From an uncultured Lachnospiraceae bacterium (GTDB lineage Bacteria > Bacillota > Clostridia > Lachnospirales > Lachnospiraceae), in contig URRW01000003.1 of the NCBI GenBank assembly GCA_900550285.1, positions 41,478 through 105,477 of the forward strand: a DNA stretch of 64,000 nt, given 5' to 3'. Positions 56,226 to 63,882 of the stretch are shown here, piece by piece (the stretch's first letter is position 1; each line of letters begins with the position of its first letter). A model generated the notes under the pieces. The model saw only the letters and a program-made list of their open reading frames with translations, made no database searches and was not told the DNA's origin. A program made the position numbers and the translations under genes.

Positions 56226-56480
56226 GATTAAGCTGACAGATACAAAATGTGTATACGAGGTCGGAGAGATGAAATATAAAAAGATTGTCGATAGTTTAAA
56301 GCTGTCGGCAATTTTTTTGTAGATATTTGGTAAAATTTAGAAAAAAAGAGGTGAAAATTGACACACATCAATTACTTCTAATGAGAATTATATTACTATA
56401 TATTTATAAAATTTTTATAAATAGGCAGAAAATATATTGCGATGATGAGAATAAAGTTTTGATGTCTGGAGGAAACTGAA

Positions 56481-58298
56481 ATGGCAAAATTTATAATGAA
56501 ATGTCCGATATGTACCTCAGAAGGAAAGGATGTGTATGTATGGGTAAATAGTGGCGTATTTGGGACAGGTTTATTTGGTAATCGTGAAGGTAAATGTCCT
56601 AACGGTCATACATTTAATATCAATGCTAATAAAATTGCGATGAAAGTATGCCCACATTGCGGTAATAACGTTGCTTATGACCAATCTAAGGGAGAGGCTG
56701 CCGTATGCCCAGTGTGTAAATCTGAATTAAATACATTGAAGGATAATTTAGCTACCGTTCAAATAAAATGTCCTCAATGTGGTTGTACTCATAGCGTGGC
56801 AAAAGATGCGAAAACAATAGAATGTGCCGTTTGCGGTGCTTTAGTCGATATTCAGCGAGAACTGGGAAAAATCCAGATGGCTGAAGAAAATACTGTAAGC
56901 TGTATAAAATATGAGGGAAATAACGAGACATTTGTTTGGAAGCATCCTATAGAAGATTTTAAATTTGGCTCACAGCTTATAGTTCATGATTCGCAGGAAG
57001 CACTATTTTTTGCAGGTGGACAGGCTCTTGATTTATTCGGAGGCGGAACATATACGCTGACAACAGAAAATATTCCGCTACTGAGCGCTGTGTATAGGGT
57101 TCCATCAGGGGAGGAAACCTTTCATAGTGAAGTATATTTTATTAATAAAACAGTACATACCGGAATTAAATGGGGAACCAGTTCCCGAATTAGTATGTTT
57201 GATCCTTATTCTGGTATGCATGTTGCAATTGGAGCATCGGGACAATTCAATATGGCAGTTTCAAACTCGAAAAAATTAATACTGAAACTTGTCGGAACAA
57301 CGGATGTTTTTGATCATTCACATAGCGTAGAGCAAATGTCTGAAAGCCGACAGGGGGATCCGTCAAATAATATTTTGTCATATATACGATCAGTGGTTAT
57401 AACCAAGGTAAAAACACATTTGGCAAATGTGATTAAAGAGCATCGGTGGAGTATCCTTGAACTTGATGCATACCTTGAAGAATTAGCGAACGGAATTAAA
57501 GAAAAAATCAATTTGGATCTGGATGAATATGGTTTGTTTATGCCTGACTTTTTCATTTTGAATATTTCGACGCCGGAGGATAGTACAGACCCGGTTGAGC
57601 GTGAAAATTACTTGAGAATGAAAAATCAGTTTGGAGAAAGATATATCCAGATACGGGAAGAAGAGAATAAAGAAGCGGTGGCTTTGGCAGCCCAAAAACG
57701 AAAACTGATAGAGGCGGAAACAGAAGCACGGCTCAATATCATTCAATCACAGGGAGAGGCAGAAAGTTTTCGTCTGCATGGTTTAGCCGAAGCTGATGTC
57801 CAACGTGCACAAGGGTTTACTGGAAAAGATAAAATGCAGTACGACGTTCAAAAAGCATTTGCAGAGAATATAGGAGGGATAAGCGGAGATGGAGGAGGCG
57901 CATTGGGTGATTTGATCGGTCTGGGAGCGGGATTGGGTTTGATGTCAAAAATAGGAAGTAGTGTAAGTTCAATGATGGATATGCCTGAAAATCATTCAGA
58001 ATTTTTGAATAAAGGAGCCGTTGTAAGTACATCTGACTCGTGGGATTGTTCCTGTGGAGCAAGGGGACAGACGGGAAATTTCTGCGCGGAATGTGGGAAA
58101 CCAAAACCGCATTCTGTCAATGAGTGGAAATGTGATTGCGGAGCTGTGAATAGAGGCGGAAATTTTTGCAGCGAGTGTGGAAAGCAACGTCCTGTTACAG
58201 AAACATGGACATGTTCCTGTGGAGCCAGTGGATTAAGCGGAAAATTTTGCAACGTATGTGGGAAAAAAAGAGATTCGGAGGCGATAGATGTTGAATAA
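56481..58298 (+). CDS. Multi-zinc-ribbon / SPFH (Band_7_1-like) / triple zinc-ribbon protein (island gene A)
   Basis: 605 aa, low GC. N-terminal CxxC zinc ribbons (CPICTS, CPHCGN, CPVCKS, CPQCGC, CAVCGA); central SPFH-like region (FVWKHPIEDFKFGSQLIVHDSQEALFFAGGQALDLFGGGTYTLTTEN...EVYFINK) with a coiled-coil tail; C-terminal three repeats of WxCxCG-(7)-FCxxCGK. RBS ggagg. Confidence 0.7.
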   Translation: MAKFIMKCPICTSEGKDVYVWVNSGVFGTGLFGNREGKCPNGHTFNINANKIAMKVCPHCGNNVAYDQSKGEAAVCPVCKSELNTLKDNLATVQIKCPQCGCTHSVAKDAKTIECAVCGALVDIQRELGKIQMAEENTVSCIKYEGNNETFVWKHPIEDFKFGSQLIVHDSQEALFFAGGQALDLFGGGTYTLTTENIPLLSAVYRVPSGEETFHSEVYFINKTVHTGIKWGTSSRISMFDPYSGMHVAIGASGQFNMAVSNSKKLILKLVGTTDVFDHSHSVEQMSESRQGDPSNNILSYIRSVVITKVKTHLANVIKEHRWSILELDAYLEELANGIKEKINLDLDEYGLFMPDFFILNISTPEDSTDPVERENYLRMKNQFGERYIQIREEENKEAVALAAQKRKLIEAETEARLNIIQSQGEAESFRLHGLAEADVQRAQGFTGKDKMQYDVQKAFAENIGGISGDGGGALGDLIGLGAGLGLMSKIGSSVSSMMDMPENHSEFLNKGAVVSTSDSWDCSCGARGQTGNFCAECGKPKPHSVNEWKCDCGAVNRGGNFCSECGKQRPVTETWTCSCGASGLSGKFCNVCGKKRDSEAIDVE

Positions 58299-58983
58299 AG
58301 TGAAACTAACCACGTTAGGATTTGTTATTGTGCTTATTCTATATAATTTTTTGGTTTTAATGATTGGCGGCATAAGTGATCATACGGTAACATTTTGGTT
58401 TTCTTATGCAATAGAAAATATTTCATTCATTATCGTAGGAGCATTGTTGGGCGTTTGTTTTTATAGAGGCGTATCGGAAAAATTATTTTTTCTGGGTTAT
58501 CCGATAGCATTCTGGTCTTGTATTTACTTACCGGCTCAGCTTGTTGTGTCAATTATTTTTATGTATATTGACCGCTATGCCAAAGCTGCCATAACAATTC
58601 AGGTGCTGTTGCTTGTATTGTATGTATTTATTGTGATTATGTGTATGCAGGCGAAGAATGCAATTGAAAATGTGTATGAAACGCGCAGTGCAAATATACA
58701 TAATATGCGCCATATGATAACAGTAATGGACAGTATAGTTCCATCTGTTTCAGATGTACAGCTAAGGAAGAAACTTTATAAATTAGCAGAGGATTTTCGA
58801 TATAGCGATATTGTATCTTCGGAAGCTACAGAAGCTCTTGAAAAGCAGATGATGGAAAAGATAGATTTGTTAAAGGTAAAGAGTAAAAATGCCCCGGATG
58901 ACGCAAGTATTCTTGCTGTAGAGATTTCAGAACAGCTGGCAGAAAGAAATTTTATTTGCAAAGAAAGTAAAAAAAGATATTAA
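58288..58983 (+). CDS. Small polytopic membrane protein (4 predicted TM) with cytoplasmic helical tail (island gene B)
   Basis: Overlaps the stop of gene A by 11 nt (coupled); hydrophobic segments aa ~8-30, 37-58, 66-95, 100-122; low GC. Confidence 0.6.
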   Translation: MLNKVKLTTLGFVIVLILYNFLVLMIGGISDHTVTFWFSYAIENISFIIVGALLGVCFYRGVSEKLFFLGYPIAFWSCIYLPAQLVVSIIFMYIDRYAKAAITIQVLLLVLYVFIVIMCMQAKNAIENVYETRSANIHNMRHMITVMDSIVPSVSDVQLRKKLYKLAEDFRYSDIVSSEATEALEKQMMEKIDLLKVKSKNAPDDASILAVEISEQLAERNFICKESKKRY

Positions 58984-59035: not shown

Positions 59036-61174
59036 ATGAATATAAGATGTAAAATGTGCGGAGCAGCGGTTCAGGTAAATACGAAAGAGCACGTCGTAGT
59101 TTGCGAATATTGCGGTTCCTCAATTACTTTGCCGTCCCTTGAGGATGAAACGAAAACGCTTTTGTATAATCGTGCAAATCAAAGCCGTTTGCGCAGTGAG
59201 TTTGATAATGCTTATAAACTTTTTGAAGATTTATTGAAAACAAATCCGGAAGATCCGGAAATATATTGGTCGCTGCTTTTATGCCGTTATGGAATTGAAT
59301 ATGTGAAAGATCCTAAAACGGATAAATTTATTCCGACTTGTCATAGAACGTTGATGCGTCCTATTTATGAGGACGAGGATTATCAGGATGCAATAAAATA
59401 TGCATCTCCTGAAATGAGAAAAATTTATGAACAAGAAGCGGTAGAAATTGATCATATTCAGCAGGCTACTTTGCGTGCGGCAAAAGATATACCGCCATTT
59501 GACATTTTTATCTGCTATAAGGAAACAGATGAATTTGACAACAGGACAGTTGACAGTGTTCTGGCACAGAATTTATATGATAAATTGACGGGGGAAGGGT
59601 ATCATGTTTTTTATTCCAGAGAAACGTTGAAAGAAATTCCAGGTGAAGCTTATGAACCATATATATATGCAGCATTACGAAGCTCTAGGATAATGATTAT
59701 TGTCGGTACATGTCCAGAATTTTTATATGCTCGTTGGGTAAAGAATGAGTGGAGCCGTTTTATCAGTTTTATGGAAAAAGGGGAAAAGAAGTATCCGATT
59801 GTCGCTTATAAGGGGATGAATCCTCGTGAAATTCCAATTGAACTGGCTCATAGTGAAGCTTTGGACATGAATGCCATAGGATTTGTAGAAGATTTGCTTC
59901 GAGGGGTTCGGAGAATATTTGAAGGAAAGGTAACAAATTCTAATACGTTGTCAACAGGCGGTTTCTTAGAGGCAGGATTTTTGGCGGTGGCAACAAAAGA
60001 ATATGAAAAGGCGGCTGAGTTGTTTCAACAGGCTATTACAATTGATTCCTCTAATCCGTGTGCATATTTAGGTATGATTGGGGCAGTAGATGAAGAAAAG
60101 AAAGAACTGTACTACCAAAAGCTTTGTGAAGTTTCTTCAAAAAGAAATCGCGAGAGCGAACAACAATATTTAAAACTTTTAAAAGATAATATTGAAAGAG
60201 TACTATATTGCTTTATAGATCATAATGACATTTTGAGAATTAAGGAGTGCATTGCTACAGGGGCAGATTTAAGTATGGGGCTTTGCTATGCTGTCCAGAA
60301 AGAAAAAAAGGAGGTGGTAATCTGCTTATGTGGGGCGGAAGGAATTAATTTGGATGTATTGGTTAATGATCAGACAGCGTGTCCTGCTAGTATTGCATGT
60401 AGTGTCAAAAATAGTGAAATATTAGAATATCTATTGGAGAGGGGCGCATCTACAGATACGATTATTGAAAATACAGAACATTCAGATTATGATACACTTC
60501 TATCATATTGTATCCAAATTTATTATCCAGAGGGTATTAAAATATTACTTGATCATGGGGCAGAGGCAATAGAAAGATTTGGGAATAGGCAGTGCACAGT
60601 GCTTTCATTAGCAATAAGGAATTCATATAGGGATATTTGTGAAATGTTATTAGAGCATGGCGCAGATATTAATGCGATTTCTGATGTGATTCCGACATTT
60701 GTTTGGGCAATATTTGGAGATGTAGAGATGATAAGTTTTATTATTGAACAACATGCTAATTTAGATTTAAAATGGGAAGTAAATAATAAAAATTATAATA
60801 TTGTTTCGTATGCTTATAATTGTGAGGCATATAGGGCATTGGAATATTTAGCAAATAGTAAATATAGATATTTAATAAAAGAACACTTAGATGATTTACA
60901 TTTTGCAAAAAGTATGTTATATTTTCCAAGCAGATTTATTGGAGGAATTATTGTTGTTATATTTGTCGCAATTAGTATTGGAGTAGGAATTGCGGGAAGG
61001 AATGGAATGGAAGCATCTCAGTGGGTAGAAGAGTTTCTGGGAACAATATTGAGCGGTTTCTTGGGGGGACTTTTAGTGTATGTTGCGATAGCAGATTTTT
61101 TAAGAAAAGATGATAATGAAGATATATTATTAGTGAAGGAAGAGATACAATATTTTAAGAATATATTAAAGTGA
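59036..61174 (+). CDS. Zinc-ribbon / TIR-domain / ankyrin-repeat protein with two C-terminal TM helices (island gene C)
   Basis: 712 aa. N-terminal C4 zinc ribbon (CKMCG...CEYCGS). TIR fold aa ~153-285 (DIFICYKETDE...GYHVFYSRETL...IMIIVGTCPEFLYARWVKNEWSRFIS) with a candidate catalytic Glu at ~238. Ankyrin repeats aa ~395-610 (LLERGAST..., LLDHGAEA..., MLLEHGADINA). TM aa ~633-654 and 667-687. Confidence 0.75.
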   Translation: MNIRCKMCGAAVQVNTKEHVVVCEYCGSSITLPSLEDETKTLLYNRANQSRLRSEFDNAYKLFEDLLKTNPEDPEIYWSLLLCRYGIEYVKDPKTDKFIPTCHRTLMRPIYEDEDYQDAIKYASPEMRKIYEQEAVEIDHIQQATLRAAKDIPPFDIFICYKETDEFDNRTVDSVLAQNLYDKLTGEGYHVFYSRETLKEIPGEAYEPYIYAALRSSRIMIIVGTCPEFLYARWVKNEWSRFISFMEKGEKKYPIVAYKGMNPREIPIELAHSEALDMNAIGFVEDLLRGVRRIFEGKVTNSNTLSTGGFLEAGFLAVATKEYEKAAELFQQAITIDSSNPCAYLGMIGAVDEEKKELYYQKLCEVSSKRNRESEQQYLKLLKDNIERVLYCFIDHNDILRIKECIATGADLSMGLCYAVQKEKKEVVICLCGAEGINLDVLVNDQTACPASIACSVKNSEILEYLLERGASTDTIIENTEHSDYDTLLSYCIQIYYPEGIKILLDHGAEAIERFGNRQCTVLSLAIRNSYRDICEMLLEHGADINAISDVIPTFVWAIFGDVEMISFIIEQHANLDLKWEVNNKNYNIVSYAYNCEAYRALEYLANSKYRYLIKEHLDDLHFAKSMLYFPSRFIGGIIVVIFVAISIGVGIAGRNGMEASQWVEEFLGTILSGFLGGLLVYVAIADFLRKDDNEDILLVKEEIQYFKNILK

Positions 61175-61206
61175 AAATTTAAAAATTAGTAGTATTAAAT
61201 ATTTAT

Positions 61207-62797
61207 CCTAGATTATTCACGGAACAGTATCTGAATTGATAACAGTACCATGAATCTGAAAATTGATCCATGCAGCCATAACATCACTCAATTAACCCGT
61301 CAAAAGGGTATAAAATCCCTGTGGCAGAGTTCAGAGCAGTTGTTAAGCTGTCAATGTTCGTTAATAGTTGCTATTCCAGCTGTACATTCAGCTTGCCGAT
61401 ATTTGAAAGTGTCTCATAGAATTCATTCTTATAGGGGCAACTGCTGCACAGTTTGAATGTGATATATCTTGCTGAATGAACTACTTTTGCAGCAATCTTC
61501 AGCAATTTTAAACGGACGGTATCAATGCGTTGCTTTCTCATATTTGCTGATAGCACCAATCTTCTAAACCAATTAAATATGTTATACGCAAGAGCATGTA
61601 CCTGCAGTCTATTGGCATTTACCATTCTGGTATGACTGCTTACGGACGCAAAATCAAAACCGGATTTGCTTTCTTTAATGAAGTTTTCCATCAGCCCTCG
61701 CTTGCAGTAAAATTTGATGAGATACTCTGGTGAGGAATCCATGTTTGTGACAACAAATGTGTACATGTAAACCATTTGGTTTTCCGGCTTTTCAACCTTG
61801 CATACCACACGCCTTTCATAAGGCCATGAACTCGCTCTATACATGAATTCGCCATAGGCTACTGCATAATCGACTTTATTATTTTTGGTGATCTCATCAA
61901 GCTCATCCACAAGATAGGATGCTTTTTTGCGGAGAATGCCATTCTCCTTCAGCCGGATCACATAGCTTGTGCCGTTTTCCTCACACTGCTTATAAAGATC
62001 AGGTGTAGCGAAACCACTGTCACCACGAAGCAGAATACGGATCGCCGGATAATCATTCAGGTATTCATCAAGTATCGGCTGCAGGAAGTCAACCACTCCG
62101 GTAGAGGAATACTCGGTTCCATCACGAAGCTGGATTTTTACCAGATCTCCGGTCATTCCATCATAACAGACAAGTGGATGGTATCCATTGCTTTGATAAT
62201 GAAAGTTAAAGGCTCTGCCTTCCTGTTTGCCGTATGCATCAAGAAGAGTGGAATCCAGATCCAGAATAACAGCCTGTGGCATCTGAATACGATAAACTCT
62301 CTTTCGGAGTATTCTGCCAATCATAAGTAACTGGTTTAAGGTATCTTCATCCATACGGTTAAAGAATCTTGATACCGTAGGCTGTGATGCAAGGGTGTCT
62401 TTTTCAAGTACAGACTTGAATACAGGATCATTTGTAAGTTCATCGGAAGTATCATCTTCAAAGTAGCCTGCAATGATCATATATATCATCTGGAGCAGGT
62501 TTTTCTGATCTGTATGATATCTGAATAATGCAGAATCGTTGGTCTTGAAAACTTTGCCTAAAAGATTATCAATACCAAGTTTTCTTACGAATTCTTTGAT
62601 GAGAAGCAATCCTGCATCGGAGGATAAATGGAATAAGTTTTTTGGAAAATAGATATAAGTGACTACAATGGATTGGAAGTGATACTGGATAGTTGAAAAA
62701 ATGTTGTATCATTTGGCTGGATAAGCTATAATAAGCATGAAAAAATAAGAAAAGGGCTGATGGTACGTCAATATCAACAGCTCCAGAGTGAACAAGG
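61207..62797 (-). mobile_element. Putative IS1380-family insertion sequence (ends tentative)
   Basis: Candidate terminus CCTAGATTATTCACGG at 61207, resembling the ISEcp1 IR start CCTAGATT (as recalled). An imperfect inverted match (CCTTGTTCACTCTGG on the opposite strand) ends near 62797. Size ~1.6 kb fits the family. No clean direct repeats seen. Confidence 0.4.
61371..62609 (-). CDS. IS1380-family DDE transposase (ISEcp1-like)
   Basis: Clear similarity to ISEcp1-type Tnp as recalled (DSGF..., YCKRGLMENFIKESK, ARYITFKLCSSCPYK). First canonical start is TTG 62609, yet similarity continues ~15 codons further upstream with no ATG/GTG. Start degenerate or N-terminus truncated. Confidence 0.8.
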   Translation of the reverse strand: MLLIKEFVRKLGIDNLLGKVFKTNDSALFRYHTDQKNLLQMIYMIIAGYFEDDTSDELTNDPVFKSVLEKDTLASQPTVSRFFNRMDEDTLNQLLMIGRILRKRVYRIQMPQAVILDLDSTLLDAYGKQEGRAFNFHYQSNGYHPLVCYDGMTGDLVKIQLRDGTEYSSTGVVDFLQPILDEYLNDYPAIRILLRGDSGFATPDLYKQCEENGTSYVIRLKENGILRKKASYLVDELDEITKNNKVDYAVAYGEFMYRASSWPYERRVVCKVEKPENQMVYMYTFVVTNMDSSPEYLIKFYCKRGLMENFIKESKSGFDFASVSSHTRMVNANRLQVHALAYNIFNWFRRLVLSANMRKQRIDTVRLKLLKIAAKVVHSARYITFKLCSSCPYKNEFYETLSNIGKLNVQLE

Positions 62798-62874: not shown

Positions 62875-63360
62875 ATGAAGAAAACTTTTGCTATTTCTCT
62901 GCTCATTATTGTGTTATTCACTTTGGTGGCGTGTGGTTCAAAAACGGCACAAGATACTGTATCAAAGGAACTTGGACTGTCTGTGTCTGGTGGTAAAGAA
63001 GTTTCAAATATTAATACATACAGTGGTAGTGAGGGTCATTCCTGTATTGCAATAAGTTTTGAAGATGAAACTGTTTTGGAAGAAATCAAGGGTAATTCCA
63101 AGTGGAAGGAGTTTCCTCTTGATGAAACAATGCAAGCACTTGTCTATGGTTTGGAAGATGAAACAGGTGAGATTGGAGCATTTTTGAGCGATGGACAGGG
63201 AAATCTCTTAGTACCAGAAATTCAGAACGGCTATTATATCTTAATTGACCGTCATTCAGATACAAAAACAAATATTTTGGAGCGAGGTTCGTTTAATTTT
63301 ACTGTGGGATTGTATGATACAGATAGCAGCACGTTGTATTGCTGTAAGCTTGATACTTAA
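62875..63360 (+). CDS. Lipoprotein (hypothetical)
   Basis: Signal peptide with lipobox LVAC-G (MKKTFAISLLIIVLFTLVACGSK); low GC; RBS aaggag. Confidence 0.6.
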   Translation: MKKTFAISLLIIVLFTLVACGSKTAQDTVSKELGLSVSGGKEVSNINTYSGSEGHSCIAISFEDETVLEEIKGNSKWKEFPLDETMQALVYGLEDETGEIGAFLSDGQGNLLVPEIQNGYYILIDRHSDTKTNILERGSFNFTVGLYDTDSSTLYCCKLDT

Positions 63361-63414: not shown

Positions 63415-63882
63415 TTAAGAGGTAAAGTCGATATTGATCGTGATTTTGTGAAGCACGCCAGTTTGCTGGGAAAGCCATGCCCAGTTGTTTACCGCAGAGG
63501 TAAAAAGACTGTCGTAATTGTTATCCAGTGCAAAATCAAAAACGTCATAGACATGGACTTTGTAGTTTGTACCGGACTTGTTGAGTGTTACAGTGGCGTT
63601 GTGGAGAGCATAAAACAAGTCTGAGTTATCAGATTTGGTGAATTCTCTAACAGCACTGTCATGGGATTTGTTACTGTTTTTAGTTGCAGATAAGAAGTCT
63701 TTGAAAGTGGAAGTGGTTTTGATCTTTTCTGCAAAGGAGCCGTTATCCTCCTTGTAGTTGATGCCGAGAACGGAGTGTTCAACTGCTTTTGCAGCACAAG
63801 GATAACCGGCAAGTTTGGCAGCCTGAGCCGCTGCGAGCCATGCAGCTTTTAGTGTAGCTGTAGAGGAACCCGGCAGGATCAT
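63415..63882 (-). CDS. Hypothetical protein
   Basis: 155-aa ORF, low GC, converging on the lipoprotein gene across a shared 22-bp-stem terminator. Its ATG overlaps the stop of a 12-codon upstream ORF (ATGA). Confidence 0.4.
   Translation of the reverse strand: MILPGSSTATLKAAWLAAAQAAKLAGYPCAAKAVEHSVLGINYKEDNGSFAEKIKTTSTFKDFLSATKNSNKSHDSAVREFTKSDNSDLFYALHNATVTLNKSGTNYKVHVYDVFDFALDNNYDSLFTSAVNNWAWLSQQTGVLHKITINIDFTS

Follow-up and report, generated by a model that had tools for sequence, protein, structure and literature searches.

The locus described here raises the question of what a TIR protein that carries both ankyrin repeats and a membrane anchor does in a Clostridial genome, and with which partners. 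The window, i.e., the whole stretch of 64,000 nucleotides that was analyzed, encodes this protein (gene C, 712 aa) at 59036-61174 of the + strand, exactly where an earlier note had placed it. The note described an unusual architecture made of a Zn-ribbon, a TIR domain, ankyrin repeats, and two TM helices. The features of the region are the following:

56275..56321, + strand, terminator-like hairpin after murF (20-pair stem and T-run), left edge of the low-GC island
56481..58298, + strand, gene A, 605 aa, soluble (no TM segment; Band_7_1, 8.1e-38 in Pfam)
58288..58983, + strand, gene B, 231 aa, four TM helices (from TM segments)
59036..61174, + strand, gene C, 712 aa (Zn-ribbon, TIR, TPR-like linker, ankyrin, TM hairpin)
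59036..59128, + strand, gene C Zn-ribbon (aa 1-31; C5, C8, C23, C26), four short beta-strands in the model
59147..59485, + strand, gene C conserved N-domain (aa 38-150), with TPR-like helices, a beta-hairpin, and a long helix
59498..59923, + strand, gene C TIR domain (aa 155-296)
59747..59749, + strand, codon of E238 in the motif W234-V-K-N-E238-W, putative catalytic Glu (from its invariance and alignments)
59954..60178, + strand, gene C TPR-like helical linker (aa 307-381; TPR_11, helices modelled), where the strain-variable tail begins
60188..60856, + strand, seven ankyrin repeats of gene C (aa 385-607), predicted to be cytoplasmic
60911..61102, + strand, gene C TM hairpin (aa 626-658 and 666-689), its outside loop short and acidic (from hydropathy, model, and charges)
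61118..61168, + strand, gene C C-terminal cytoplasmic helix (aa 695-711), from the model
61207..62609, - strand, IS1380-family element (transposase ORF 61371-62609; NCBIfam transpos_IS1380, 1.1e-112)

Profiles, hydropathy, and the AlphaFold2 model agree with the architecture initially proposed for gene C. The gene starts with an ATG, 52 nt after gene B, and is preceded by the Shine-Dalgarno-like sequence AAAGGA. The four cysteines of the Zn-ribbon show no variation in 131 relatives (from about 85 loci), and the N-domain, which has an invariant surface spanning W78 to R104, packs against the TIR domain. The ankyrin region had been credited with at least four repeats and has seven, which are tandem 33-residue helix-loop-helix units that match Ank profiles and form an ankyrin solenoid. 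The two hydrophobic C-terminal helices of the earlier note correspond to the segments 626-658 and 666-689, which AlphaFold2 models as a helical hairpin (611-653 and 660-690), and the charges around them obey the positive-inside rule. Gene C is thus membrane-anchored by a C-terminal in-out-in hairpin, as predicted from hydropathy, modelled helices, and charges, which places the Zn-ribbon, the N-domain, the TIR domain, and all seven ankyrin repeats on the cytoplasmic side. We found no signal peptide in gene C and no secretion system nearby. The notion of a class of membrane-anchored TIR-ankyrin proteins holds for gene C itself, but some members of the ankyrin subfamily itself lack a membrane anchor. 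Three elements had been overlooked: the N-domain (aa 38-150), the TPR-like linker (aa 307-381), and the operon partners A and B. The linker scores just above the Pfam cutoff of TPR_11, and below the cutoffs of TPR_2, TPR_19, and other TPR models.

The TIR assignment is robust to the choice of method. Pfam TIR_2 (PF13676) matches aa 157-279 with 35.9 bits for a cutoff of 28, while PF01582 (TIR) reaches 19.7 bits, just under its cutoff of 21.3. The motifs that had been quoted are in place (DIFICY at 156-161, GYHVFYS at 188-194, IMIIVG at 219-224, and WVKNEW at 234-239), and the AlphaFold2 models have beta-strands at 157-160, 191-193, and 219-224, followed by a helix at 233-247. The region folds as a flavodoxin-like alpha/beta domain whose best superpositions are with solved TIR structures, with the Glu present, and hence does not correspond to the non-TIR flavodoxin-like fold lacking this residue that the earlier note had named as the outcome that would overturn its claim. 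The top Foldseek match is AbTir in complex with an NAD analogue (7UXU, TM 0.71), and ThsB, SpbK, TIR-SAVED, and TIR-STING are also structural neighbours. In hhalign, W234 and E238 fall on the W-T-N-Y-E of AbTir, and WVKNEW aligns with the WCxxEL of plant and TLR domains. Among the matches listed, WVKNEW is found in 120 of 120 database relatives, and E238, which lies at the start of helix alphaC as in enzymatic TIRs, is invariant in the same 131 relatives. We take the catalytic Glu of AbTir and plant TIRs to be that of the W-x-x-x-E / WCxxEL motif. Judging by these alignments, the TIR domain of gene C keeps the W-x-x-x-E catalytic motif, and the earlier designation of Glu ~238 as the catalytic-site residue is correct.

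The activity of this domain is less clear-cut. A Glu is also conserved at the position of E238 in scaffold TIRs of the TLR/MyD88 type, which counts against our preferred explanation, and so does the sole TIR of the family assayed so far. The isolated TIR domain of EUBELI_RS07950 (C4Z355) from E. eligens, a divergent relative sharing about 35% identity with gene C across this domain, was assayed as two constructs, and neither yielded NAD-derived products (Weagley 2022, PMC9092222 Table S2), whereas TIRs of the AbTir/BtpA type are active as isolated domains. That screen used isolated domains of fixed length in E. coli lysates, where about 28 of 152 were active, and its authors warn of false negatives (PMC9092222). 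Gene C may use its ankyrin array as a sensor and its TIR domain as an NADase, as was suggested. TIRs of the AbTir/BtpA type share the fold and the W-x-x-x-E alignment with gene C, but are small proteins with a coiled coil followed by the TIR domain, and have neither a membrane anchor nor a repeat tail.

Genes A, B, and C form a discrete low-GC island in the window. At its left edge (56275..56321), GC content drops from about 0.61 to 0.25-0.33, and in locus L001 the low-GC stretch is the A-B-C block. On the right, the IS1380-family element sits 32 nt past the stop codon of gene C, and the identity between the window and L001 ends at 61206. This element is outside the system and marks its right edge in the window; its own right end and inverted repeat were not located. 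A promoter scan did no better than shuffled sequence (27 found for 20.7 expected) and was therefore left unused. Gene A has an N-terminal Zn-ribbon array (CxxC at aa 8, 57, 76, 97, and 115), a Band_7_1 SPFH domain at aa 158-375, a coiled coil and a Gly-rich linker, and three C-terminal Zn-ribbons with the pattern W-x-C-x-CG...FCxxCG. It has no sequence match in the PDB. The stop codon of A and the start of B overlap by 11 nt. Gene B belongs to an unannotated family of 4-TM proteins of about 230 aa, and has a cytoplasmic helical tail of about 100 aa that carries a conserved YSDPxS motif. It has no match in Pfam, NCBIfam, PADLOC, or PDB, and none in Pfam and PDB even with a profile of 43 sequences. 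An exhaustive search retrieved 2,933 representatives of this family, and a word-indexed search retrieved 3.

The first 350 residues of gene C are 41-50% identical to those of hundreds of proteins, and are alignable over the CxxC...CxxC ribbon, the N-domain, and the WVxNEW TIR. They are the constant module of a very large Clostridial family, with a replaceable tail past about aa 320. The search returned at least 8,000 candidates, with more than 600 matches among species genomes and several paralogs per genome. The architecture of gene C is therefore unusual in its rare ankyrin tail, but not unique. The claim that the class is undescribed stands, as far as we could check: a literature search found no paper describing the architecture or the A-B-C operon, and public databases label the family only as "TIR domain-containing protein". 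A tblastn search with aa 1-350 gave 0 matches in INPHARED phages and PLSDB plasmids, and IMG/VR has only 2 relatives, which suggests that the system is not typically carried by phages or plasmids. This near-absence counts against our preferred explanation. A search of PHROGs with gene C gave only matches of unknown function, in the tail region.

In the window, A and B are adjacent to gene C on the same strand, and this triad of SPFH, 4-TM, and TIR genes recurs widely. When species-level loci are picked by the TIR module, an A-like gene lies no more than 2.1 kb away on the same strand in 49 out of 79, and in 21 of the 32 whose flanks reach 4 kb or more on each side. A recurs in 53 of the 84 loci and B in 46, and no other neighbour of the family TIR gene is recurrent. 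The reverse analysis is more striking: in loci picked by A alone and having enough flanking sequence, the family TIR gene is present in 31 out of 31 and B in 30 out of 31. The linkage persists through changes of gene order (A-B-C or C-A-B), identities of 35-41%, and unrelated genomic backgrounds. These results show that the A-B-C linkage is nearly obligate. Around one-third of the well-flanked family loci lack A and B, including the RCC1-tailed L013 and the five-paralog arrays of L014, L016, L027, and L035, and this counts against our preferred explanation. So does the fact that the neighbourhoods of the triad mostly contain housekeeping genes and few known defence genes (a few Abi, SoFic, and PDC matches among 149 neighbours of complete triads, a count without a baseline). 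Several family loci have integrases or recombinases nearby, and the A-B-C cassette is of low GC, mobile, and patchily distributed.

Family members differ mostly in their tails. A Pfam scan of the tails alone identified DUF6273 in 53 out of 105 and RCC1-like domains in 18, the others including LRR_5, SH3_3, and Flg_new. Ankyrin tails are very rare; they were searched using phmmer with real subfamily tails, since a consensus-ankyrin probe is only partly sensitive. Tails can also be exchanged. In DNA, loci L001 and L002 share 98-100% identity from A to about codon 300 of gene C, past which identity is 85% and falls to 47%, the drop starting at around aa 320 of the protein, before it returns to 98% shortly after the stop codon. 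Between these two strains, recombination has replaced the tail of gene C alone. The breakpoints are too sharp for a gradual drift, which is ruled out as the source of the difference. In another relative (L025), a DGR targets the DUF6273 tail: the VR is at the 3' end of the gene, the cognate TR, RT, and Avd are nearby, and the mismatches between VR and TR are adenine-specific. We found no RT or Avd in the window island (56.3-64 kb) for gene C, and we know of no ankyrin tails that are DGR targets.

We searched for similarities with known systems, and neither PADLOC nor NCBIfam assigns A-B-C to one. In PADLOC (PADLOC-DB v2.0.0, 2023, with later systems outside its coverage), A and B have no match at E<=0.1, and gene C has weak matches to PDC-M72A (in the ankyrin region), ThsB1 (1.7e-4), and PDC-S66, an outcome that counts against our preferred explanation. 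Thoeris is made of a ThsB TIR sensor and a ThsA effector, either SIR2-SLOG or TM-Macro. No ThsA model of PADLOC matches A or B, and no ThsA-type gene (SIR2-SLOG or TM-Macro) recurs in 84 family loci; gene C is partnered by an SPFH/Zn-ribbon protein and a 4-TM protein. As regards CBASS, Pycsar, and type III CRISPR, Pfam, NCBIfam, and PADLOC identified no SAVED, STING, CARF, or cNMP-binding domain in gene C, and there is no cyclase gene among the recurrent neighbours of the family loci. SARM1, an animal TIR NADase regulated by solenoid repeats, has ARM repeats before SAM-SAM-TIR and assembles into SAM-driven octamers. In gene C, by contrast, the TIR domain follows a Zn-ribbon and the N-domain and precedes the ankyrin repeats; SAM is absent, a TM hairpin is present, and the operon partners are SPFH and 4-TM proteins. 

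Two other comparisons concern the partners and the tails. Gene A resembles YdjI in being a soluble Band_7_1 SPFH protein with C-terminal Zn-ribbons (PMC8581546, PMC11237479), and resembles YdjG in its N-terminal Zn-ribbons; it also adjoins a gene for a small polytopic membrane protein (B). Contrary to YdjGHI/SamGHI-PspA, there is no PspA in the window island or among the recurrent neighbours, the third partner is a TIR protein, and A-B-C is a mobile low-GC cassette. Most members of the family are predicted to have, as Toll-like receptors do, a variable domain outside (ligand-binding in the receptors), one TM helix, and the TIR domain inside. However, their orientation is reversed, as they are type II membrane proteins with an N-terminal TIR domain, and the outside domains are DUF6273 and RCC1. 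As its ankyrin array lies in the cytoplasm, gene C exposes no domain outside the cell. Beyond the TIR fold, the similarity is one of analogy rather than homology. Finally, some family members share a hypermutated C-terminal binding domain and a TIR effector with the DGR-diversified conflict sensors of Dore et al. (2024, PNAS, PMC10907252). Those systems are based on STAND NTPases or MoxR-vWA and occur in multicellular bacteria (PMC10907252), whereas here there is no NTPase, the triad contains an SPFH protein and belongs to gut Clostridia, and gene C has no DGR nearby.

Considering all this, A-B-C is most likely a membrane-associated module combining a TIR sensor and an effector, probably with a role in conflict or immunity. 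Our preferred explanation, which we regard as about equally liable to prove right or wrong, is that A, B, and C make up a self-contained membrane module acquired by horizontal transfer, with gene C as its TIR subunit. In this explanation, the soluble SPFH protein A would be recruited to the membrane by B, as YdjI of B. subtilis is by YdjG/H. YdjI, itself soluble, combines an SPFH domain with a C-terminal Zn finger, and its recruitment to the membrane requires the TM proteins YdjG/H, the three forming a membrane stress-sensor complex (PMC8581546; bioRxiv 10.64898/2026.02.06.704340; PMC11237479). Given the gene linkage, A and B may form a sub-membrane platform on which the constant Zn-ribbon/N-domain part of C docks, and this platform would set how closely the TIR domains of C can pack. 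The variable tail would be the specificity element, a role supported by tail replacement and DGR hypermutation: a cytoplasmic ankyrin solenoid in gene C, extracellular DUF6273 or RCC1 domains in most relatives. Binding of a ligand, or a membrane perturbation sensed by A and B, would trigger TIR oligomerisation and then NAD+ cleavage. A precedent for control by tethering is the TirC protein of Dictyostelium, an auto-active TIR NADase that is held in check by a TM tether (PMC13142454). Since there is no fourth conserved gene, the simplest output would be a depletion of NAD+ that arrests growth, as in abortive infection. Another option is an ADPR-derived signal acting on A or B.

A separate explanation is a Thoeris-like arrangement, in which the TIR domain makes an ADPR-derived second messenger and either B (with its four TM helices and YSDP motif) or A is the messenger-activated membrane effector. 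Type II Thoeris has a TM effector, and B is a conserved and uniform membrane protein with an invariant cytoplasmic motif. The structural proximity to ThsB, SpbK, TIR-SAVED, and TIR-STING, and the weak matches of gene C to ThsB1 and to the ThcB4 of type III Thoeris (3.4e-5 in NCBIfam), go in the same direction. However, there is no recognisable SLOG, Macro, SAVED, CARF, or STING domain in A or B, no nucleotide-sensing gene recurs near the family loci, and some family members lack A and B. We regard this arrangement as quite unlikely. A very unlikely alternative is that the TIR domain is not catalytic and drives homotypic assembly as an adaptor, in the manner of MyD88 or MAL, and so gathers membrane proteins into clusters on the SPFH platform. 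The best PDB profile match of the domain is a TLR TIR, MyD88 and TIRAP are among its top structural matches, and the E. eligens domain yielded no products in vitro.

A different kind of explanation is that the system serves the envelope rather than phage defence. A and B would be a sensor like YdjG/H/I (SamGHI), and the TIR proteins its clients or outputs in the place of PspA, tuning NAD+ metabolism or signalling to the state of the membrane or cell wall, or to surface ligands. Gene A, which joins a Band_7_1 domain to Zn-ribbons at both ends, combines the features of YdjG and YdjI, and the SPFH complex of B. subtilis serves in stress signalling and development (bioRxiv 10.64898/2026.02.06.704340). 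The family is also very abundant, with several paralogs per genome, mostly housekeeping genes around the triad, and many tails that are typical surface domains of Firmicutes (RCC1, LRR_5, SH3_3, Flg_new). Yet neither PspA nor any other stress-response gene recurs beside the triad, the cassette has low GC and is mobile and patchy, and the replacement of tails in near-identical strains together with DGR hypermutation suggests an arms race rather than housekeeping. We find this explanation rather unlikely. As some bacterial TIR proteins are virulence factors, gene C could in principle be delivered to the host and blunt TLR signalling, like TcpB/TcpC or the Ank effectors of Legionella, and its ankyrin repeats do match models of Legionella Dot/Icm Ank effectors, weakly and far below cutoff. 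But it has no signal peptide and no secretion system nearby, its TM hairpin and positive-inside charges keep it in the membrane of the producer, it is linked to cytoplasmic and membrane partners, and its ankyrin array is just one among the many exchangeable tails that the constant intracellular module can carry. We regard a host-directed role as extremely improbable, and a secreted effector of this kind is ruled out by topology and operon linkage.

Gene C is thus a rare-tail member of a very large and uncharacterised family of gut Clostridia that is found beside SPFH and 4-TM genes, and A-B-C looks, on sequence grounds, like a new TIR-based system of sensor and effector. TIR domains are a currency of immunity common to bacteria, plants, and animals, and to our knowledge the bacterial systems that use them (Thoeris, CBASS, Pycsar, SPARTA, and SpbK) are almost all soluble. 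SPFH proteins organise membrane microdomains, and their roles in bacteria are poorly understood. A-B-C ties a putative TIR enzyme both to the membrane and to an SPFH scaffold. We tentatively raise the possibility, to which we give clearly less than an even chance, that the Zn-ribbon-TIR family with its SPFH and 4-TM partners is a new and widespread receptor-type system of immunity or recognition in gut Clostridia. In such a system, ligands would bind a hypervariable tail, and the signal would pass through a TIR enzyme tethered to the membrane and assembled on an SPFH "raft". The tails would be mostly extracellular, and swapped or hypermutated by DGRs, while the inward-facing gene C would survey the cytoplasm with its ankyrin array. 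Gut and rumen Clostridia have very many members of this family, and its constant TIR module with swappable, sometimes DGR-hypermutated tails offers a clear model of a modular sensor/effector. An active system would also matter for the metabolism of NAD+ and cADPR isomers in the gut, the question behind the screen of Weagley et al. (PMC9092222).

Gene C, the TIR-ankyrin gene, is an intact ORF of 712 aa, with AAAGGA on the 5' side of its ATG start. Its two partners, genes A and B, lie upstream on the same strand; the stop of A overlaps the start of B by 11 nt, and a gap of 52 nt separates B from C.

Genes of the triad (window positions, strand)
56481-58298, +, gene A, 605 aa
58288-58983, +, gene B, 231 aa, 4 TM helices, helical tail in the cytoplasm
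59036-61174, +, gene C

Searches of gene C against Pfam gave TIR_2 at aa 157-279 (35.9 bits, for a gathering cutoff of 28) and Ank_2, Ank, Ank_3 and Ank_5, each over cutoff. They also gave TPR matches at aa 43-77 and 313-350, which the earlier note on this DNA did not mention; TPR_11, TPR_14 and TPR_19 are at or slightly over cutoff and the remaining TPR models under it. Kyte-Doolittle hydropathy placed TM segments at aa 626-658 and 666-689. A full-length AlphaFold2 model, built from 48 homologs, is confident (mean pLDDT 89.5).

Motifs and modelled domains of gene C (residues; domains from the AlphaFold2 model)
1-31, zinc ribbon of four strands
38-150, helical and beta-hairpin domain
155-296, alpha/beta domain
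156-161, motif DIFICY
188-194, motif GYHVFYS
219-224, motif IMIIVG
234-239, motif WVKNEW, which contains E238
between the alpha/beta domain and the repeats, TPR-like helical linker
about 385-607, seven helix-pair repeats
611-653 and 660-690, long helical hairpin
695-711, terminal helix

The combination of zinc ribbon, TIR domain, ankyrin repeats and two TM segments described in the earlier note is thus confirmed by the ORF, Pfam, hydropathy and the model, and the motifs it quoted are all where it had placed them. Gene C has a cytoplasmic layout: its first TM helix comes only after 610 residues, which include no signal peptide, and the charges obey the positive-inside rule.

A profile of the TIR region alone, from 18 family members, matched TLR15/TLR2 best in the PDB (1.4e-5), with weaker matches to AtTIR, L6/L7 and MyD88 and no strong match outside TIR domains. 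In every one of these alignments the family's WVKNEW falls on the WCxxEL motif. When the family profile was aligned with the AbTir TIR sequence by hhalign, W234 and E238 were placed on W-T-N-Y-E, the motif that we take to carry the catalytic glutamate of AbTir (E208). E238 and its W-V-x-N-E-W context are invariant across 131 paralogs from about 85 loci, as are the four zinc-ribbon cysteines. Four independent lines of evidence, among them the Pfam score and the two profile alignments, agree that the domain is a TIR domain with a putative catalytic glutamate, and that the predicted catalytic motif is intact. Two family ORFs (L075:9989-11422 and L078:818-3142) escaped the exact pattern used to cut tails, W[VI][KR]NEW, perhaps through a different residue at the third position of the motif, even though the alignment shows E238 to be invariant.

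Published activity data are less favorable. The isolated TIR domain of an Eubacterium eligens family member (EUBELI_RS07950 / C4Z355; YDIYISY...WVKNEW, 35% identity to the TIR region of the window) yielded no products with either of two constructs (Weagley et al. 2022, PMC9092222, Table S2), and the same authors placed metagenomic family members in their "Inactive" cluster. The E. eligens result counts against catalysis, with modest weight: the domains screened were isolated, of fixed length and assayed in E. coli lysates, only about 28 of 152 proved active, and false negatives are a risk that the authors themselves point out (PMC9092222).

The family to which gene C belongs, zinc-ribbon-TIR proteins of gut Clostridia alignable over its aa 1-350, is large. 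The protein search returned at least 8,000 candidates, the best 120 of which share this region at 41-50% identity and differ in their C-terminal regions. All 120 carry WVKNEW or WVRNEW plus N-terminal CKMCG...CEYCG knuckles; in most of them a large tail comes after one TM helix near residue 500-600. When one genome of each species was scanned, there were at least 600 matches to the family pattern, those listed being from Lachnospiraceae, Oscillospiraceae, Acutalibacteraceae, Ruminococcus and related gut or rumen Clostridia; public annotation is only the generic "TIR domain-containing protein". In a Pfam census of 105 tails, DUF6273 was found in 53, RCC1-like repeats in 18, and LRR_5, SH3_3, RHS and Flg_new in a few each. 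Ankyrin repeats occurred in 4, namely the window and three loci deliberately fetched as ankyrin relatives. A phmmer search with 13 ankyrin-subfamily tails, whose control showed partial sensitivity, found none in 79 genome loci and none in 80 metagenome loci. This near-absence marks gene C as a rare variant of a common family. The interpretation in the earlier note is partly supported: the TIR domain with its catalytic motif stands, while the architecture is not a lone one. Within the ankyrin subfamily, C-terminal TM helices number one or two in the clade nearest gene C; P0112 carries one tail anchor, and the tail of another clade is without TM helix. Across the family, the N-terminal module is constant and the tail replaceable.

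The gene A protein has an N-terminal array of five CxxC knuckles, followed by a Band_7_1 SPFH domain (8.1e-38), a coiled coil and, at its C-terminus (aa 520-598), three tandem W-x-C-x-CG...(N/G)FCxxCGK zinc-ribbon repeats; no TM segment was found in it. Gene A occurs in a long form of about 600 aa and a short one of about 380-480 aa; from its length and its Pfam results, the short form seems to be without the N-terminal array. Gene B matched no annotated family and has no Pfam or PDB relative; its own family counts 2,933 representatives at E<=1e-3, nearly all of about 230 aa, with a conserved YSDPxS motif.

The three genes co-occur in relatives at just 35-41% identity, in unrelated genomic backgrounds and differing gene orders. 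Among 79 loci picked solely by the TIR module, an A-like gene lies no more than 2.1 kb away on the same strand in 49, and a B-like gene is present in 39; where at least 4 kb is available on both sides, A is present in 21 of 32. All-against-all clustering of neighbors in 84 loci gave A (53 loci) and B (46) as the only recurrent partners, and no recurrent fourth component. Conversely, 80 metagenome loci picked solely by gene A contain a family TIR gene in 63 cases and B in 67, rising to 31/31 and 30/31 among the loci that have 3.5 kb or more of sequence on each side. The linkage is near-obligate from the side of gene A, and one A-B pair can precede one to five TIR paralogs. Not all family members are linked to the pair: the RCC1-tailed L013 is without both. 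Five-paralog tandem arrays of zinc-ribbon-TIR-TPR proteins (about 535-594 aa), with TPR as the only repeat type, occur at L014:6316-14964 and in L016, L027 and L035, with three paralogs in L022; several paralogs of the L014 type are tail-anchored, with one TM helix at the very C-terminal end. Near the L014, L016, L027 and L035 arrays there is neither an A nor a B gene, so part of the family probably works without the SPFH pair. We are highly confident in the architecture of gene C and the triad taken together.

The cassette shows several signs of mobility. At the murF terminator of the window, GC content falls from about 55-60% to 33-41%; in the syntenic contig L001, the low-GC stretch and the A-B-C block coincide. 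Two strains, L001 and L002, carry the cassette at the same site, with flanking proteins, A and B 97-100% identical. Their gene C proteins are 98-100% identical to about residue 320 and then drop to 17-21% in the TM region; the DNA is 98-100% identical to about codon 300, 85% declining to 47% beyond it, and 98% again about 150 nt past the stop. This is a sharp recombination tract in which the tail alone was replaced. In another locus, L025, a bAvd-like gene and a reverse transcriptase lie after a DUF6273-tailed family member. A 127-nt repeat pairs the 3' end of the TIR gene with a copy between these two genes, and in its core all mismatches are at adenines of the template copy, the signature of a diversity-generating retroelement (DGR), here one aimed at the C-terminal DUF6273.

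Features of tail replacement and diversification
L001:5058-7196 and L002:5071-7200, tail-swap pair, with the difference confined to about 1.2 kb of 3' gene C sequence
L025:12415-12541, VR
L025:12667-13080, bAvd-like gene
L025:13108-13234, TR
L025:13359-14468, reverse transcriptase (RT)

Avd-like clusters occur in 7 of 84 loci and RT clusters in 5 of 84. In phage receptor-binding proteins, DUF6273 has already been described as a domain diversified by DGRs.

An IS1380-family element (61207-62609, minus strand; transposase 61371-62609) begins 32 nt after the gene C stop; its right end was searched for and not found. Past it the window is still low in GC and the match to L001 is lost, L001 running on into LytTR and ABC-transporter genes, which points to a probable rearrangement and not a simple insertion. 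This low-GC region holds a 155-aa ORF (63415-63882, minus strand) with a very weak, below-cutoff match (E 0.057) to pNTSase1, a predicted nucleotide synthetase, and an adjoining 161-aa ORF (62875-63360) that starts with a lipoprotein-like signal sequence.

Thoeris, CBASS, Pycsar and the other PADLOC-catalogued systems are ruled out for the triad by composition, and in the literature we found no publication joining SPFH proteins to TIR domains or describing the family of gene C. In its TIR enzyme the triad most resembles SARM1 or AbTir, in its scaffold the YdjGHI module, and in topology, for most family members, Toll-like receptors. In Bacillus subtilis, the SPFH protein YdjI/SamI is soluble, has a zinc finger at its C-terminus and depends on the membrane proteins YdjG and YdjH for its membrane localization; the three form a stress-sensor complex (PMC8581546; bioRxiv 10.64898/2026.02.06.704340; PMC11237479). 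B would likewise bring A into a platform beneath the membrane, on which the constant part of C would dock. TIR NADases generally become active on assembling into higher-order structures. In Dictyostelium TirC, a TM tether holds back an otherwise auto-active TIR domain (PMC13142454). Given this assembly requirement and this restraint, platform and tether may keep the TIR domains apart until a ligand binds the tail, or A and B sense a membrane perturbation, whereupon the domains would cluster and cleave NAD+. We give this sequence of events about an even chance of being right. Since there is no fourth conserved gene, NAD+ depletion would be the simplest output; the main variant is a messenger acting on A or B.

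As for the biological role, mobility, patchy distribution, tail swapping and DGR targeting lead us to favor conflict or immunity. However, the neighborhoods of the triad consist mainly of housekeeping genes, with few known defense genes, and phage and plasmid collections contain hardly any family members. IMG/VR, with 2.9 million viral contigs, gave just two relatives (L094 and L095), both of which have an A-like gene, in the orders A-B-C and C-A. Triads of the ankyrin and DUF6273 types adjoin a NACHT/STAND protein, prophage tail genes, three serine recombinases, or a tyrosine integrase with ParAB (L005:690-2477; L007:1-4836; L003:1948-6933; L010:4234-5073); these settings fit mobile or accessory regions and give no consistent defense-island signal. 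We rate the triad as a probable TIR-based sensor and effector system, with gene C as a rare ankyrin-tailed, cytoplasm-facing member.
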